Sequence record: OQ031495
Length of the DNA: 64,000 nt
From: Escherichia phage MRostami-2023e
Direction: 5' to 3' (one strand)
Numbering within the stretch: the first letter of the stretch is position 1; every line of letters starts with the position of its first letter. Below the pieces are notes generated by a model. That model was not told the DNA's origin and did no database searches. It saw nothing but the letters and a program-made list of their open reading frames with translations. This document shows, one piece after another, positions 31,903 to 49,628 of the stretch. Both the position numbers and the translations under genes were made by a program.

Positions 31903-31977
31903 GGCCCTGTAGCTCAATGGGAGAGCTGTCAGCTCATAACTGATAGGTAGCTGGATCGAAACCAGCCAGGGTCACCA
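31903..31977 (+). tRNA. tRNA with anticodon CAU (Ile2-type or Met)
   Basis: Hand-folded cloverleaf: acceptor ggccctg/cagggtc, D stem gctc/gagc, anticodon loop cuCAUaa, T stem gctgg/ccagc, encoded CCA. Confidence 0.75.
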
Positions 31978-31980
31978 ATC

Positions 31981-32057
<77 letters not shown>

Positions 32058-35023: not shown

Positions 35024-35045
35024 GGAGGACTCCGGTCCTCCTTTT
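35024..35045 (+). terminator. Rho-independent terminator
   Basis: ggaggac-tccg-gtcctcc followed by tttt. Confidence 0.7.
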
Positions 35046-35064
35046 GGATAATAAAGGAGTTAAC

Positions 35065-35667
35065 ATGCGAAACCAAAATAATGATATTGACTCAATGTTC
35101 GAAGAGTTCCGAGATAAGGTAAATCCACCTACGTCTTTAGTTGATTCATTACGATATGTTGCAACTGGGCGTAAATGGTACTGGTCGTCTTCTTATGAGA
35201 CTACTGAGAAAACAGCTAGCCATAGCAGAAAATCTTTATTAGCCCCAGGTATTATGATTCATGATATCGGAGCTATTGCTAAACTAGTTGCAGACCATGA
35301 TATTAGATTCACCGATTTCGTTGCTCCTACATGGTCTGTTTGTTGTTTAAACACCGAATGGGAATATATCAGCGAACGCTCTAAAGATTATTATGGTTTT
35401 AGAGATAAGCTTTTAAGGTCTAACATGTTTTATATTGATACAGAAGTTCTGGTCAATAATAAAAAATACTACTTCACTTTAATCGTCGATTCTGAAACTA
35501 TGTATGAAGGCAAGCCTTTGCTTAAAAGAGTTGATGCTTTAAGTGCTATTGATGCGCTTTATGAAACTATGGTTGTTAGTCCTAATTTCACTAACAATTT
35601 AATCCTTGAGCAATTTATTATGGAATGTAGAGAATATGTCAAAGCCAACCCTATACATGCCAAGTAA
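35065..35667 (+). CDS. Hypothetical protein, C-terminal FIMECR motif (family member 1, soluble)
   Basis: ATG with SD aaaggag; ends ...EQFIMECREYVKANPIHAK. Confidence 0.6.
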   Translation: MRNQNNDIDSMFEEFRDKVNPPTSLVDSLRYVATGRKWYWSSSYETTEKTASHSRKSLLAPGIMIHDIGAIAKLVADHDIRFTDFVAPTWSVCCLNTEWEYISERSKDYYGFRDKLLRSNMFYIDTEVLVNNKKYYFTLIVDSETMYEGKPLLKRVDALSAIDALYETMVVSPNFTNNLILEQFIMECREYVKANPIHAK

Positions 35668-36031
35668 GCCCTGGGCATACGAATACAAACGTAAATTAAT
35701 CCCAAACGAAGTACTATTTGGCCCTATTTTAGCTTTAGCATTTTTAATCTTTATGATTATAGGAGCTGTTTTAGATTCCAATAAAGTTATATCGTCCGAT
35801 GCAGCGTTTTCATTAATGTTCGTCGCACCACTTATTGTACCGTTTTTATTAATGCCTATTAATTGGGTAGGATATTGGCACCAAGGCCGTCATCACAGAG
35901 CTCGAGTTCGTGAGTGGAAAGTTCAGTGCGCAAAAGCCCAAGCTCAGTATGATGAAGCTGTTAAAAAGTATGAATATGAAGAAGCTATGGAATTCGTTAA
36001 GGAGATAAGATGCAAAAGCCACAACTCTTAA
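35636..36031 (+). CDS. Two-TM membrane protein, C-terminal FVKEIR motif (family member 2)
   Basis: Two hydrophobic segments; ends ...AMEFVKEIRCKSHNS; overlaps upstream gene. Confidence 0.6.
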   Translation: MSKPTLYMPSKPWAYEYKRKLIPNEVLFGPILALAFLIFMIIGAVLDSNKVISSDAAFSLMFVAPLIVPFLLMPINWVGYWHQGRHHRARVREWKVQCAKAQAQYDEAVKKYEYEEAMEFVKEIRCKSHNS

Positions 36032-36369
36032 CCGTATGGCCTTCTCTTGGTGAGAACATTCTAATTTTTATTATGAGTATTGGCATGGGATTTGCCTTTG
36101 GATTAGTTGGATTTCTTATTGACGGCGTTGTGTTAGGATTTATAGGGAACACTGGTGGATTCACAGACCAATGGCAGGACTTACGGTATACCCAAGCCTT
36201 TGCATCCATCGCATCCTTTTGTACTGTAGTCTATTTTTACTACGATTTTATAAACCGTAACAAGAAAAATAAAAAGGTTTACGCTTCTCAAATGGTTAGT
36301 TATAATGAACTCCTAGCTAGACGTGAAAATGAAACAATCGAAAACTTTATTAAGGAATGTAGAAAATGA
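36010..36369 (+). CDS. Two-TM membrane protein, C-terminal FIKECR motif (family member 3)
   Basis: SD aaggag; ends ...IENFIKECRK. Confidence 0.65.
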   Translation: MQKPQLLTVWPSLGENILIFIMSIGMGFAFGLVGFLIDGVVLGFIGNTGGFTDQWQDLRYTQAFASIASFCTVVYFYYDFINRNKKNKKVYASQMVSYNELLARRENETIENFIKECRK

Positions 36370-36671
36370 GTAAGATTATTGAAATTAAAGTACCAGAGTT
36401 TAATGATGCCAAATCCGCTTCAGACGCAATTTATAAACTTCTGAATCAAGCTGAACGTATCGAAGAAGAAGCAACAAAGATCGCAGACCAATATGCCGTA
36501 TCATTTTCTGTAGGTGATTATGGTAGCGGTCGTACTTATTATCCTAAGGGTGAAATCGTATCCCAGTGGATGAAAGATGAAATTGAAAATAATGGTGGCG
36601 ATGTTAAGCGTGAAGGTAATGGTTACGTTATTACTGAAGGTGCTTGGGTTTCGTCTTCTGCGTTGTGCTAA
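36366..36671 (+). CDS. Hypothetical protein, paralog A (C-terminus GAWVSSSALC)
   Basis: ORF track; ATGA-coupled. Confidence 0.6.
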   Translation: MSKIIEIKVPEFNDAKSASDAIYKLLNQAERIEEEATKIADQYAVSFSVGDYGSGRTYYPKGEIVSQWMKDEIENNGGDVKREGNGYVITEGAWVSSSALC

Positions 36672-36680
36672 GGAATCATT

Positions 36681-36953
36681 ATGTCTAAAGAACAAACCGA
36701 ACTGGCTGAAGCTGTAGCAAAAATCTATGCAGCTATTGAGGCTGCCAAAGAAATTGCTGATAAACAAAACACAACATTCAACTTGTACCCAGCTTATGGT
36801 ATGGGTGGAACCTATCATTCACCCGGACAGCTTAAAGCCGATCTTGAACGTTGTACAAAAAACGGCTATGCTGAATGGGCCGACGTTTACCAATACGACT
36901 ACAACCTGAGCCTCGAAACTGGTGGTTGGGTTGCATCTTCTCACACTTGCTAA
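36681..36953 (+). CDS. Hypothetical protein, paralog B (C-terminus GGWVASSHTC)
   Basis: ORF track. Confidence 0.6.
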   Translation: MSKEQTELAEAVAKIYAAIEAAKEIADKQNTTFNLYPAYGMGGTYHSPGQLKADLERCTKNGYAEWADVYQYDYNLSLETGGWVASSHTC

Positions 36954-36962
36954 GGAAACCAT

Positions 36963-37160
36963 ATGTCTCGTGAATTGGATTGTGCTGTACGTACGGCAGT
37001 AGCTGCTCTGGAAAACCTGTTCCAAATTGCAACAGAAGAACGCGAAGAAGTTACATTATGGATTGAAGATAACGCAGGTCTGAATCTCCAGGACGCGATC
37101 TCATTATCCCACAATAGTATCACTGTTCAAGGCTGGGTATCATCTAGTTATTCTTGCTAA
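36963..37160 (+). CDS. Hypothetical protein, paralog C (C-terminus QGWVSSSYSC)
   Basis: ORF track. Confidence 0.55.
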   Translation: MSRELDCAVRTAVAALENLFQIATEEREEVTLWIEDNAGLNLQDAISLSHNSITVQGWVSSSYSC

Positions 37161-37164
37161 AACA

Positions 37165-37202
37165 GTTTACAACAAGATAGGGCTATGTTATAGTAGTCCT
37201 AT
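37165..37202 (+). promoter_or_regulatory. Early promoter cassette (gtttac ... tatagt) with near-perfect inverted repeat atagggcta/tagtcctat bracketing the -10
   Basis: seen in sequence. Confidence 0.6.
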
Positions 37203-37222
37203 CAAATTAAATGGAGTTCACA

Positions 37223-37462
37223 ATGATTTATTACGAAAGTATCGGAACCGAAGTAGTTGCTAAAACTATTACTCGTGAAAAGTTTGCAAAGATATTCGAT
37301 ATGCGTTATAAAAAATCTGAACACAAAGGCATCCGATTCGAAGATGCGCACTGTACAATTTGCCCTTATAATGAAGACATAAACGGTACAATCGTTCCAT
37401 TGGTAGAGGCTTCACATGTCGACCTCTGGGATGAATATGATATCGCATGTCGTGAAATTTAA
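37223..37462 (+). CDS. Hypothetical protein (79 aa)
   Basis: ATG with SD ggag. Confidence 0.55.
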   Translation: MIYYESIGTEVVAKTITREKFAKIFDMRYKKSEHKGIRFEDAHCTICPYNEDINGTIVPLVEASHVDLWDEYDIACREI

Positions 37463-37490: not shown

Positions 37491-38447
37491 ATGATGTTAG
37501 TTATTGGTTCTCGTGCACTTCACTATCACGGTCTTATTGATTCTAGCGCTATCAAAAATAGTGATTGGGACTTTATTGCGGACCAATGTTCTTGGAATGC
37601 ATTCAAAAATCAAATGATGGGTGTATATGTCCACCAAGATAACCCTGATGTCCAAGTTTTCAAATGCTTCCATAATGGACGCGAAACTCATTTTGAAGCA
37701 TATATTGTTCCGGCAATCACTAACGTTCGCGAACTAGTCGGTGAACTCACTCCTGAAGATTTCACGTCTTCTTATGACCTTTTAAAATACGCCAAGAAAA
37801 ATTTGACTAAAGACCGTTTGAACGGGTTTTACTGGGCAACTCCCGAGATATGTCTTGCAATTAAGATGTCTCATCGTTTCAAGAAAAATAATCCATTCTT
37901 TTTAAAGACTATGAACCATATTCAGTATCTTCGTGGTAAAGGTGTTACACTGAACGATGAACTTACTGAAATTATGCTGAAACGCCAGAAAGAAACCTTG
38001 AACTATGCTCACCCAGTTCTTGACACTTCTAAAAGTGCGTTCTTTAAAGATGACATCTATACATATGACCATGATACTATTCACGAAGCCATTGCGTTAA
38101 CAGGCCGCCCAGCGTATACATTTTATATGAAAGACGGTTCTGAAGTCATGACCTCACGTGAGAAGTTCGAATCGTTACCAGAAATGGTCAAATTGGCCGG
38201 TGTATATGAAGAATCATGTGTACTAGCATTAGAACGTTCTCAGATTCCTAATGACTTTAAAATTAACCCTGAAGCCAGTTTCATGATGGCATTAGAAAAA
38301 GTCTGCACAAGCATCACCTCCGGTTGGTTCCGTGAATACGCATACGAGAACTACAGCAAAGTTGTAAGTATGTATCATAAGCTCGGCAAAAATGATTACA
38401 TTAAACGGTTTAAAGAAAATTTTCATATGGTGAAACCTTTCAAATAA
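37491..38447 (+). CDS. Hypothetical protein (318 aa) with N-terminal G-S...D-x-D signature suggestive of a pol-beta-type nucleotidyltransferase fold
   Basis: VIGSRALHYHGLIDSSAIKNSDWDF; tentative motif-level call only. Confidence 0.5.
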   Translation: MMLVIGSRALHYHGLIDSSAIKNSDWDFIADQCSWNAFKNQMMGVYVHQDNPDVQVFKCFHNGRETHFEAYIVPAITNVRELVGELTPEDFTSSYDLLKYAKKNLTKDRLNGFYWATPEICLAIKMSHRFKKNNPFFLKTMNHIQYLRGKGVTLNDELTEIMLKRQKETLNYAHPVLDTSKSAFFKDDIYTYDHDTIHEAIALTGRPAYTFYMKDGSEVMTSREKFESLPEMVKLAGVYEESCVLALERSQIPNDFKINPEASFMMALEKVCTSITSGWFREYAYENYSKVVSMYHKLGKNDYIKRFKENFHMVKPFK

Positions 38448-38466: not shown

Positions 38467-38728
38467 NNNNNNNNNNNNNNNNNNNNNNNNNNNNNNNNNN
38501 NNNNNNNNNNNNNNNNNNNNNNNNNNNNNNNNNNNNNNNNNNNNNNNNNNNNNNNNNNNNNNNNNNNNNNNNNNNNNNNNNNNNNNNNNNNNNNNNNNNN
38601 NNNNNNNNNNNNNNNNNNNNNNNNNNNNNNNNNNNNNNNNNNNNNNNNNNNNNNNNNNNNNNNNNNNNNNNNNNNNNNNNNNNNNNNNNNNNNNNNNNNN
38701 NNNNNNNNNNNNNNNNNNNNNNNNNNNN
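38467..38728. other. N-masked run (262 nt), flanked on both sides by gtttaca promoter elements
   Basis: run of n. Confidence 1.
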
Positions 38729-38786: not shown

Positions 38787-39092
38787 ATGAAATTAACAGA
38801 AACCAATCGAATTGGTCTTTTAACAATACTTGCATCACCTTTTTACGCAACTCTTTCTGTTGCGGTATTACAAAAGGCTTACAGTATGGATGGTGTTCCT
38901 GGTTGTATATTTTTATCACCATTTTTGCTATTCGTTGGAGCTTTGTTATTATATGCCACGTCTGGTTTCGACAATAATGTCTGGGTCAATTATAAACGTA
39001 AATTGTCTGAAGAAGAACACGCAGAAGCTCGTAAAAAAGCTATTGAATCTACCAATCTAGAAAATTTCATTAAAGAATGTCGAGGAAAATAA
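38787..39092 (+). CDS. Two-TM membrane protein, C-terminal FIKECR motif (family member 4)
   Basis: ends ...NLENFIKECRGK. Confidence 0.65.
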   Translation: MKLTETNRIGLLTILASPFYATLSVAVLQKAYSMDGVPGCIFLSPFLLFVGALLLYATSGFDNNVWVNYKRKLSEEEHAEARKKAIESTNLENFIKECRGK

Positions 39093-39093
39093 T

Positions 39094-39780
39094 ATGAATA
39101 GTTCTAAAGTGTTTAATAGTCAAGCTCGTGCAGTAGGTGGTTTTGCTCATGCGATTAAAAACGACCAGATTAAAAACGAGCCTATGTTCTTCAACTGTAG
39201 TTTAGAATTTGCTTATAATAACGGCGGTCCTATTACTCGCAGCTTCATCATGAACTTGCCAGATGATTGGAACACCGACCAGGTTGTATTTGATTCACGA
39301 GTCCACATGCTGATGCCTGGTTGGTACCCTGCTATCCCAGGTTATCACCATGACGATGTACCACGCCCGGATATTCCGGTTGGTCAACACTTTATTACTG
39401 CAGGACAACCTGACTATGACAATCCTCGCTATTTGTCTGAACATATTCTTGGTCTTGTTAACGCTGATGTGTGTCCTACTCATTTTGCAACAGGAACTGC
39501 AGAGTTCAGTCAGATTCCTGATGGCGAACTTATCTATCGTCAGTGGCACAAAGAAGTCCTCGAAAAAATTGAAAAAGGCGAACTAGAGAAATGGGAAGCT
39601 CCAGATCGTACTCTTCTTCAGTTTGATTGGCAAACATGGCACACTGGTTCTCGTGCAATTAGTAACGGATGGCGTTGGTTCGGACGTGTATCTCGTAATA
39701 CAGACCGAGTTAAAAAGATTACCAATGAAATTCGTGTCAATGCCCAAGTTTATCTGGAATTCCCTATGGAAGGCTGGTAA
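39094..39780 (+). CDS. Hypothetical protein (228 aa)
   Basis: ORF track. Confidence 0.6.
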   Translation: MNSSKVFNSQARAVGGFAHAIKNDQIKNEPMFFNCSLEFAYNNGGPITRSFIMNLPDDWNTDQVVFDSRVHMLMPGWYPAIPGYHHDDVPRPDIPVGQHFITAGQPDYDNPRYLSEHILGLVNADVCPTHFATGTAEFSQIPDGELIYRQWHKEVLEKIEKGELEKWEAPDRTLLQFDWQTWHTGSRAISNGWRWFGRVSRNTDRVKKITNEIRVNAQVYLEFPMEGW

Positions 39781-40271
39781 TGATTAACAAAACATATTGG
39801 TCTAATATAGACGATGGCAACGAAGGTATTTCATACTATTCAGTAGATTGGTCAGGATGTCCATCCTACTTAGTGAAGCATATTTGCCAAGAATTTAAAA
39901 TCGACCAGCCAGCAGGTATTATCGTGAACAGATACATTAATGGATATCAACCTATCGATGAAGTAATACGAACAACTCAAGCTGAGCTTGAAAAGTTTTT
40001 CAATAAGTGCCAATGGATAACAGGATGGATTATATTTGTACCGTCGGTATGGTTTTTTAGTACTAAGGTGAGTTCTTTCGGTTTTGTTGATATTATTGCT
40101 ATCTTATTAGCATCTACTATCGTAAGTATTATTGGTGGCATCATTGGCGGCGGTACCGCCGCCATCATTATTAATCTTGTTAAAAGTAGTTTACAGGAAC
40201 GTAAAGACAGGATAAAGGCCAAGAATAATGAAGTTGAACGTTTTATTACCGAATGCAGGAATTTGAGATGA
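39780..40271 (+). CDS. Two-TM membrane protein, C-terminal FITECR motif (family member 5)
   Basis: ends ...VERFITECRNLR. Confidence 0.65.
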   Translation: MINKTYWSNIDDGNEGISYYSVDWSGCPSYLVKHICQEFKIDQPAGIIVNRYINGYQPIDEVIRTTQAELEKFFNKCQWITGWIIFVPSVWFFSTKVSSFGFVDIIAILLASTIVSIIGGIIGGGTAAIIINLVKSSLQERKDRIKAKNNEVERFITECRNLR

Positions 40272-42777: not shown

Positions 42778-43217
42778 NNNNNNNNNNNNNNNNNNNNNNN
42801 NNNNNNNNNNNNNNNNNNNNNNNNNNNNNNNNNNNNNNNNNNNNNNNNNNNNNNNNNNNNNNNNNNNNNNNNNNNNNNNNNNNNNNNNNNNNNNNNNNNN
42901 NNNNNNNNNNNNNNNNNNNNNNNNNNNNNNNNNNNNNNNNNNNNNNNNNNNNNNNNNNNNNNNNNNNNNNNNNNNNNNNNNNNNNNNNNNNNNNNNNNNN
43001 NNNNNNNNNNNNNNNNNNNNNNNNNNNNNNNNNNNNNNNNNNNNNNNNNNNNNNNNNNNNNNNNNNNNNNNNNNNNNNNNNNNNNNNNNNNNNNNNNNNN
43101 NNNNNNNNNNNNNNNNNNNNNNNNNNNNNNNNNNNNNNNNNNNNNNNNNNNNNNNNNNNNNNNNNNNNNNNNNNNNNNNNNNNNNNNNNNNNNNNNNNNN
43201 NNNNNNNNNNNNNNNNN
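42778..43217. other. N-masked run (440 nt)
   Basis: run of n. Confidence 1.
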
Positions 43218-49288: not shown

Positions 49289-49628
49289 NNNNNNNNNNNN
49301 NNNNNNNNNNNNNNNNNNNNNNNNNNNNNNNNNNNNNNNNNNNNNNNNNNNNNNNNNNNNNNNNNNNNNNNNNNNNNNNNNNNNNNNNNNNNNNNNNNNN
49401 NNNNNNNNNNNNNNNNNNNNNNNNNNNNNNNNNNNNNNNNNNNNNNNNNNNNNNNNNNNNNNNNNNNNNNNNNNNNNNNNNNNNNNNNNNNNNNNNNNNN
49501 NNNNNNNNNNNNNNNNNNNNNNNNNNNNNNNNNNNNNNNNNNNNNNNNNNNNNNNNNNNNNNNNNNNNNNNNNNNNNNNNNNNNNNNNNNNNNNNNNNNN
49601 NNNNNNNNNNNNNNNNNNNNNNNNNNNN
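49289..49628. other. N-masked run (340 nt)
   Basis: run of n. Confidence 1.

Follow-up and report, generated by a model that had tools for sequence, protein, structure and literature searches.

We analyzed a 64,000-nucleotide stretch of the genome of Escherichia phage MRostami-2023e (OQ031495; "the window"), in which three tandem open reading frames (ORFs), here called ORF1, ORF2, and ORF3, encode small proteins with a common Trp/Ser/Cys ending that we refer to as the tail. A gene downstream of them on the same strand encodes a protein with the Pfam domains DUF7277 and DUF7275 (the partner protein). The finding extends beyond the three ORFs: they belong to an undescribed, widespread phage module that combines an array of small acidic proteins with a nucleotidyltransferase-like DUF7277-DUF7275 protein. 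Several described systems invite comparison. GlnD with PII, and GlnE with glutamine synthetase, are pairs in which a Pol-beta-fold nucleotidyltransferase reversibly nucleotidylylates a protein, and GlnD removes the modification by means of an HD domain. In MntA-HepT, a type VII toxin-antitoxin system, a minimal nucleotidyltransferase AMPylates a small partner, and CitX and MdcG attach a nucleotide-derived prosthetic group to a Ser of the acyl-carrier proteins of citrate lyase and malonate decarboxylase.

As a working analogy, the partner protein is like GlnD in pairing a nucleotidyltransferase-like head with an alpha-helical His/Asp domain, and the small proteins are like PII in their size (~100 aa), in a nearly invariant Tyr within a Gly-rich YG-x-GG-T-Y loop, and in an invariant Ser. 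There is, however, no sequence or profile similarity to GlnD, GlnE, or PII, and the fold of the small protein differs; the C-terminal Trp/Ser/Cys motif, the multi-copy arrays, and the encoding by phages also set the locus apart from GlnD-PII. As in MntA-HepT, a nucleotidyltransferase-like gene adjoins small partner genes on the same strand, but the small protein is a helix and a beta-sheet with an acidic linker rather than an all-alpha HEPN protein: its alignment contains neither R-x4-6-H nor a conserved Arg or His, and a HEPN identity found no Pfam or PADLOC match among the small proteins. The copy number (1-6) and the lytic-phage context are likewise unlike MntA-HepT. The carriers served by CitX and MdcG are also small, very acidic proteins with an invariant Ser and a nucleotidyltransferase-like neighbor, and the idea of a reactive-thiol carrier fits; yet homology is absent, the thiol here is the small protein's own terminal Cys, and no metabolic partner genes accompany it. 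Finally, Ocr, Arn, and ArdA are likewise small, strongly acidic proteins from an early accessory region, but the present family has no sequence or fold similarity to them, and no such mimic is known to have a conserved C-terminal Cys motif or an obligate enzyme neighbor.

The PHROG catalogue already holds the sequences of ORF1 and ORF2 (PHROG 899) and of ORF3 (PHROG 4882), but it leaves them without a function, divides the family between two entries, and mentions neither the tail motif nor an association with phrog_2141, the DUF7277-DUF7275 family. PHROGs 899, 4882, and 2141, as well as Pfam DUF7277 and DUF7275, are catalogued without function, and a search of one literature library with the family identifiers, the RB69 ORF names, and nucleotidyltransferase, AMPylation, and anti-defense terms found no mention of them.

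A family of small acidic proteins with a shared tail

The window sequence bore out the description, in an earlier note, of three ORFs that lie head to tail with short spacers and end in GAWVSSSALC, GGWVASSHTC, and QGWVSSSYSC. All three are on the + strand, and both spacers are 9 nt long. In each spacer the TAA stop of the preceding gene is embedded in an AAGGA ribosome-binding site (TGC TAA GGA A..ATG), and the ATG of ORF1 overlaps the stop codon of the e.3-like gene before it. The GenBank relatives carry all three ORFs as annotated CDSs, in >100 genomes. The features of the locus are as follows.

36278..36306, + strand: promoter-like GTTTACG-17-TATAAT, within the e.3-like gene, upstream of ORF1
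36366..36671, + strand: ORF1, 101 aa, ending GAWVSSSALC, with a YGSGRTYYP loop and an N-terminal helix; phrog_899
36642..36671, + strand: tail-coding repeat, copy 1 (A-W-V-S-S-S-A-L-C + stop)
36681..36953, + strand: ORF2, 90 aa, ending GGWVASSHTC, with a YGMGGTYH loop; phrog_899
36924..36953, + strand: tail-coding repeat, copy 2
36963..37160, + strand: ORF3, 65 aa, ending QGWVSSSYSC, with an N-terminal helix and without the YG-x-G loop; phrog_4882, truncated subtype
37131..37160, + strand: tail-coding repeat, copy 3
37166..37194, + strand: promoter-like GTTTACA-17-(TG)TATAGT, between ORF3 and the downstream genes
37211..37462, + strand: 83-aa ORF between the array and the partner gene; phrog_3723, syntenic in JS98-like phages
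37491..38447, + strand: partner gene, 318 aa; Pfam DUF7277 + DUF7275, phrog_2141

The tail is specific to these ORFs. A six-frame regular-expression scan of all 64 kb for W[VILAM][SAT][SAT][SAT]..C returned three sites only, which are the three ORF ends. When every window ORF of at least 35 aa was searched with a hidden Markov model (HMM) of the family, ORF1 (E 1.7e-24), ORF2 (1.4e-22), and ORF3 (0.03) were matched and no others. ORF1 and ORF2 align by BLASTP across 54 aa (E 1e-4), including YG-x-G-x-TY, so that their similarity extends past the last 10 residues, and both match phrog_899 (ORF1, E 1.3e-22, residues 3-101; ORF2, E 1.4e-18, residues 3-90; profile positions 134-221). ORF3 matches phrog_4882 over its full length (E 7.7e-37); its likeness to ORF1 and ORF2 is restricted to the last ~14-37 residues and a comparable N-terminal helix. 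The family trait of a helix that ends A-[DE]-x-x-x-x-x-F-x-F and is followed by a [YW]G-x-G-x-x-Y loop is complete in ORF1 (YGSGRTY) and ORF2 (YGMGGTY), and ORF3 has the helix only (IATEE). All three ORFs are real genes and are paralogs within a large phage family; by sequence comparison, ORF1 and ORF2 are clear homologs, and ORF3 shares with them the hallmark tail and the N-terminal helix.

An origin by local duplication and divergence, proposed in the same note, stands as regards paralogy, given the ORF1/ORF2 homology and the shared tail; a recent date for it does not. Three pieces of DNA can still be aligned, at 70-76% identity: the 30 nt that encode the tail, 48 nt at a gene junction, and 25 nt of the YG-x-G region. 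Because the same array of distinct subtypes is kept across T4-like genera, the duplication is ancient, older than those genera. Synonymous differences outnumber nonsynonymous ones within Mosigvirus in ORF1 (11:1), ORF2 (26:12), and ORF3 (28:2), an excess that indicates purifying selection on all three proteins. In the RB69 reference (AY303349, L019 4235-4541) one indel at ORF1 position 204 divides the gene into RB69ORF139c (71 aa) and RB69ORF138c, with ORF2, ORF3, and the enzyme gene intact, so that either (i) ORF1, at least, is dispensable, or (ii) the RB69 record is erroneous.

These observations bear on the possibility that the ORFs are chance frames or decaying duplicates without function and that their shared ending is coincidental. 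The RB69 frameshift and the mere 65 aa of ORF3 would fit it; against it stand the confinement of the motif to three ORF ends in 64 kb, hundreds of homologs with the same tail, the strong synonymous excess, the ribosome-binding sites, and the CDS annotation in >100 genomes. The data already refute this explanation.

Homologs are abundant elsewhere. A profile built from six sequences was used in an exhaustive HMMER search (E<=1e-3), which yielded 199 cluster representatives, nearly all 75-120 aa long and aligned right to the C-terminus; a word-indexed search recovered close relatives only. Of 151 short family matches, 141 had W-x-[S/A/P]-S-[S/T/N]-x-x-C no more than two residues from the stop, and all three window ORFs conform to the narrower pattern W-x-[SAP]-S-[ST]-x-x-C at this place. 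In a 133-sequence alignment W94, S97, and C101 are invariant, and A40, Y52, G53, G55, Y58, and S98 are conserved in >=90%. The consensus begins with an N-terminal helix ending (A)E-x-IADE-x-G-[VL]-x-F-x-F, continues through a YGMGGTYYP loop and a variable linker with many Asp, Glu, Gly, Ser, and Trp residues, and closes with G-x-W-x-S-S-S-x-x-C; the mean net charge is ~-8 over ~89 residues. A profile search of 5.8 billion sequences gave 412 clusters, almost all from phage-sized metagenomic contigs, none of which had a Pfam domain or a meaningful name. By tblastn, relatives of ORF1 were found in 486 GenBank phage records, in all of which they are annotated as hypothetical, from phages of Escherichia, Aeromonas, Klebsiella, Enterobacter, Pseudomonas, and other hosts; relatives of ORF3 were found in 251 records. 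The family is essentially restricted to phages and consists of very acidic, small (~65-120 aa) alpha+beta proteins.

In 20 of 233 members the acidic linker itself contains abbreviated forms of the motif, W-x-[S/N]-S-x-C; there are 24 of these, where shuffling predicts 0.6 and no shuffle gave more than 4. Arrays may be longer than that of the window: in other T4-like genera, three to five tail-bearing genes precede the enzyme gene (JS98, L031 2691-3933; L026 3083-4655; L034 3858-4627; L025 3913-4956), the number being five in JS98-like phages. A further subtype in other T4-like genera, ~72-94 aa long, ends in W-x-x-S-S-C and has an internal DW[LM]NSSCYGE; it was missed by the family HMM, and none occurs in the window.

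Domain searches of the three ORFs against Pfam, NCBIfam, and PADLOC gave nothing significant; sub-threshold matches to Peptidase_S78_2 (0.007), E217_Gp32 (0.01), and PDC-S49 (0.01) were dismissed as chance. Two matches of the exhaustive search, of 1446 aa and 953 aa, lacked the motifs and were judged spurious coiled-coil hits. Longer family members showed no informative domain fusions, and the name 'RraB regulator' given to P0230 is unsupported by Pfam. In T4, Tk.1 (NC_000866, 11347-11535, 62 aa) matched the family HMM weakly (E 0.006 in a search confined to T4 ORFs). The match spans the helix and the F-x-I...YG...TYY region, and the protein, which has no W-S-S-C tail, may be either a distant relative that lacks the tail or a coincidental hit.

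A confident AlphaFold2 model of ORF1, made with the 133-sequence alignment (pLDDT 93.6, pTM 0.79), shows a long helix (15-43) against a small sheet; within the tail, residues 93-96 are in a strand and residues 97-100 in a short helix. Foldseek found nothing below E 0.28 for this model in the full PDB and, in BFVD, uncharacterized homologs only. Profile matches among PDB sequences were designed helical bundles that fit the N-terminal helix alone, and were dismissed. A ubiquitin-like or sulfur-carrier identity (ThiS, MoaD) was also considered; no beta-grasp fold with a C-terminal Gly-Gly was seen in the small proteins.

Linkage of the array to the DUF7277-DUF7275 gene

In the window, the stop of ORF3 (37160) is separated from the start of the partner gene (37491) by 331 nt on the same strand. 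Two distant family members likewise each have a gene for a ~310-aa DUF7277+DUF7275 protein directly downstream. We examined the association in both directions. In the forward test, IMG/VR was scanned by patterns combined with tblastn, on the basis of 13 aligned, diverse enzyme homologs, and 80 loci were obtained. The small-protein HMM found 1-6 matches in each of 71 of the 80, and two further loci contained divergent small genes with the tails NWDSSTC and DWDSSSANC. After clustering of the enzyme at 60% identity, small genes accompanied 16 of 20 clusters, and at least two small genes accompanied 10 of 20. Every one of the 147 small-gene matches was on the strand of the enzyme gene, with 146 upstream and 1 downstream, although flanks of equal length were searched; the gap between small gene and enzyme gene was 1-1607 nt (median 545 nt). 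As the HMM misses both the W-x-x-S-S-C subtype and the ORF3 type, these small-gene counts are lower bounds.

For the reverse test we took eight small-protein representatives, chosen solely because they lie on long contigs. In seven of these eight loci a DUF7277-DUF7275 gene was located <=1.3 kb downstream on the same strand. The pairing also occurs in Straboviridae and in uncultivated contigs, and the named phages in which it was seen include the following.

phiPsa347 (Otagovirus): up to five small-gene copies with the enzyme gene
nepoznato (Phapecoctavirus): two small-gene copies with the enzyme gene
AM101 (Acinetobacter Lazarusvirus): three small-gene copies with the enzyme gene
Yut3 (Stenotrophomonas Menderavirus): two small-gene copies, here downstream of the enzyme gene
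ACP17 (Busanvirus): one small-gene copy with the enzyme gene
Hallingskeid (366-kb Erwinia phage): one small-gene copy with the enzyme gene

Flanking genes vary by lineage and include replication genes, ribonucleotide reductase, and NAD salvage genes, among others. Because they differ between lineages, inherited synteny cannot account for the adjacency, and the same-strand, upstream position across non-syntenic lineages argues for a functional link between the array and the enzyme gene as the two parts of one module, a conclusion in which we have high confidence. The module is also essentially phage-specific: a scan of 185,579 bacterial and archaeal species (one genome each), which relied on two stringent peptide patterns, gave six matches, all in metagenome-assembled genomes, and in four of these six, small genes again adjoined the enzyme gene. 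In T4, neither the enzyme nor a tail-bearing family member was found in the 125 kb covered (1-76 kb and 119-169 kb, comprising all early and middle regions). Two side observations concern neighbors of the enzyme gene: in Gordonia phage Lozinak, a short-form enzyme gene likewise adjoins a tRNA cluster, and in one uncultivated T4-like contig (L102 6507-7496) a Pol-beta-family gene (Pfam RlaP) lies two genes downstream of the DUF7277-DUF7275 gene, an arrangement seen once. RlaP is associated with RNA repair.

The product of 37491-38447 matches DUF7277 (E 1.3e-27, 96.8 bits) and then DUF7275 (E 1.4e-77, 260.3 bits; Pfam cut-offs 27), and both domains are present in all 13 diverse homologs. Residues invariant in the 13 are G6, S7, D25, D27, K125, S127, H128, Y192, H194, D195, H198, E240, E241, E248, and R249; R129 is also listed among the invariant residues of the C-terminal domain, and a 46-sequence alignment adds a nearly invariant E69 (>=90%) and a long KVCTSITSGWFRE block. 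In an AlphaFold2 model (pLDDT 91.1), the N-terminal part consists, in order, of a strand (2-5), a G-S turn, a helix (7-12), a strand (26-31, with D25-x-D27), a helix (32-42), and strands 45-47, 54-61, and 64-73, the last of which bears E69. An h-G-[GS] turn, a [DE]-h-[DE]-h strand, and a carboxylate on a later strand are the signature arrangement of Pol-beta-type nucleotidyltransferases, and the partner protein has the turn (G6-S7), the strand motif (D25-x-D27), and the third carboxylate (E69). Some GenBank records, from Acinetobacter phages, name it 'putative nucleotidyltransferase'. Judging by these motifs and the predicted topology, the partner protein is probably a nucleotidyltransferase-fold enzyme. 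Its C-terminal domain (118-309) is all-alpha and holds a His/Asp/Glu cluster. In a comparison with HD phosphohydrolases, H128, H194-D195, H198, and E240/E241/E248 are invariant on this all-alpha domain, and no HD family gave a profile match to it. The names 'biotin operon repressor' and 'HdeA-like', which some homologs of the enzyme carry, are unsupported by Pfam.

Possible functions of the module

The explanation that we favor overall, with moderate confidence, is that the module consists of an enzyme and its small protein partners or substrates, the tail being a docking or modification motif. The DUF7277-DUF7275 protein would be the enzyme, with a Pol-beta-type nucleotidyltransferase head and an all-alpha His/Asp/Glu domain, and the small proteins would associate with it as partners, most likely in the role of substrate or substrate-adaptor. 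The W-S-S-S-C tail would then be a short linear motif through which they dock on the enzyme or are modified by it; candidate acceptors are the invariant Ser and the terminal Cys of the tail and the nearly invariant Tyr of the YG-x-GG-T-Y loop, and the variable acidic loops could give each paralog a different specificity or host target. One enzyme gene placed after several diverged small genes is the layout of enzymes that act on families of substrates. The module would be expressed early and have a role in host take-over or counter-defense rather than an essential one. Both early expression and such a role are suggested by the promoter-like sites, which resemble the T4 early-promoter type, together with the location in the hypervariable e-tRNA accessory region; ORF1, moreover, is frameshifted in the RB69 reference.

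A linear recognition motif, rather than a purely structural element, is suggested by several properties of the tail: no other feature of the family is as well conserved; it persists in the ORF3 type, from which the YG-x-G loop is gone; shortened copies recur inside linkers far above expectation; and a separate subtype has both internal and terminal copies. The earlier proposal that the tail is a shared interaction or modification site is thus plausible, from its invariance, its retention in ORF3, the internal copies, and the enzyme-like neighbor. The two halves of that proposal differ in strength. That the tail mediates docking to the enzyme we put forward tentatively, as quite possible; that the small proteins are covalently modified seems unlikely to us. 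Equally speculative is the idea that the arrays are a new class of phage protein substrates, whose tails and internal copies are covalently modified by the adjoining enzyme. The chemistry could be nucleotidylylation of the tail Ser or the terminal Cys, possibly followed by an intramolecular Ser-Cys thioether. If this were true, modified small acidic effectors would be deployed early against the host, by way of a phage-specific post-translational modification system and a new small-protein fold.

Several results weigh against the explanation that we favor. The tail lies within the fold of the ORF1 model and could be structural instead of a free docking peptide. A 305-kb contig has no enzyme gene within 4 kb of its small gene, and conversely a few long-form enzyme loci, such as that of CC31 (L040), have no small genes. 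No small partner was detectable near the shorter enzymes (~250-275 aa) of Streptomyces, Gordonia, Vibrio, and Curvibacter phages, which implies that the enzyme can function without one. The linkage between array and enzyme is purely genomic. As to the enzyme itself, a profile of the partner protein had no match among PDB sequences at E<=10, and searches of Pfam, NCBIfam, and PADLOC returned nothing beyond the two DUFs and no nucleotidyltransferase family; because it lacks profile similarity to any characterized member, we term the protein nucleotidyltransferase-like and do not assign it to the superfamily.

A portion of these results would suit stand-alone acidic effectors, i.e., DNA or protein mimics that inhibit a host nucleic-acid-binding or defense protein. 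The tail would then be structural, capping the beta-sheet or serving in dimerization or metal binding through the terminal Cys, and the DUF7277-DUF7275 gene would be merely co-regulated, or act in the same pathway without contact. Mimics of the Ocr, Arn, and ArdA type are small acidic proteins of a similar kind, and the mean net charge (~-8), the linker rich in Asp, Glu, Gly, Ser, and Trp, the small size, and the accessory early region all agree with such a role, as do the strand and short helix that the tail forms inside the modeled fold and the occurrence of enzyme without small genes in some genomes and of one small gene without enzyme. Co-regulation alone, however, hardly accounts for strict same-strand upstream adjacency across unrelated lineages, the internal motif copies and the tail-retaining ORF3 type argue for a recognition motif, and the fold resembles that of no known mimic. 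We give this alternative a small but real chance. Regulators of the enzyme that are not its substrates, namely antitoxin-like inhibitors, activators, or chaperones whose paralogs provide graded or condition-specific control, are a rather improbable alternative. Small genes immediately upstream on the same strand recall antitoxin-toxin pairs, of which MntA-HepT, AbiEi-AbiEii, and MenA-MenT contain nucleotidyltransferases, and the adjacency statistics fit; but 1-6 copies at a spacing of 1-1607 nt, with unrelated ORFs between, are unlike 1:1 toxin-antitoxin operons. The carriers are lytic-phage genomes, with six matches only in the 185,579-species scan, no PADLOC or toxin-antitoxin family was matched, and an inhibitor would not need an invariant Ser-Ser...Cys terminus.

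Much less credible is the notion that the small proteins are precursors resembling those of ribosomally synthesized and post-translationally modified peptides (RiPPs), in which the S-S-S-x-x-C tail and the internal W-x-S-S-x-C copies would be cross-linked after activation of Ser by the enzyme, for example by Ser O-nucleotidylation, formation of dehydroalanine, and attack of the Cys thiol to give a lanthionine-like ring. Diverged precursor-like genes upstream of one modifying-enzyme gene are the classic layout of a RiPP cluster, and both the Ser(i)...Cys(i+3/4) spacing and the reiterated motif fit thioether-forming motifs. Yet the model (pLDDT 93.6) predicts a well-folded protein instead of a leader joined to a core peptide; the neighborhoods have no recurring cyclase, protease, or exporter gene; no dehydration driven by a nucleotidyltransferase is known; and the idea derives purely from the motif.

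The surrounding region and the meaning of the module

The stretch matches Escherichia phage vB_EQ1 at 100% identity and many Mosigvirus genomes (RB69 group, T4-like) at 96-99%. By annotation transfer, the array belongs to the block of accessory genes that separates the lysozyme gene e from the tRNA cluster, and it is bordered by a homolog of T4 e.3 (36010-36369) and an e.2-like gene (39780-40271); T4 has no counterpart of the array at the equivalent position of its e region. The genes for tRNA-Met (cat) and tRNA-Arg (tct) lie at 31903-32057, ~4.3 kb upstream of the array, which places the module in a tRNA-proximal accessory region, as in the e-segB block of T4.

A second paralog family surrounds the array, at 35044-35667, 35606-36031, 36010-36369, 38787-39092, and 39780-40271. 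Its members are mostly small membrane proteins, namely e.2-, e.3-, e.4-, and e.5-like proteins and one extra, and they share a near-C-terminal motif, (N/E)-F-[IV]-[KT]-E-C-R, in the forms FIKECRK, FIKECRGK, FITECRNLR, FIMECREYV, and FVKEIRCKSHNS; T4 e.3, e.4, and e.5 bear the identical motif. An ORF at 39094-39780 (228 aa, phrog_1843, no Pfam match) is kept in Mosigvirus between two FIKECR-type membrane genes. The labels 'sulfurtransferase' and 'host specificity protein' found in related records belong to the e.4-like and e.6-like genes, outside the module. The window contains 13 N-runs totaling 2257 bases (e.g., 38467-38728, 42778-43217, and 49289-49628), and the 262-N run at 38467-38728 begins 20 nt past the stop of the DUF7277-DUF7275 gene; as vB_EQ1, otherwise identical, has just a 70-nt spacer at this position, the masked letters are additional sequence in the window.

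In T4-like and other large lytic phages, functions in host take-over and counter-defense are encoded mainly in accessory early regions, most of whose genes are unannotated. The present module occurs in hundreds of sequenced phages of Escherichia, Klebsiella, Enterobacter, Aeromonas, Acinetobacter, Pseudomonas, Stenotrophomonas, and Erwinia, and its carriers include therapeutic-type Mosigvirus and Phapecoctavirus isolates. Three anonymous ORFs thereby become part of a defined, directly testable two-component module, which also offers a first functional handle on Pfam DUF7277 and DUF7275. If the tail is indeed modified by the enzyme, the module would represent a protein modification system and a small-protein fold that are both new; failing that, the family would remain a large group of acidic effectors whose invariant C-terminal Cys motif is unusual.

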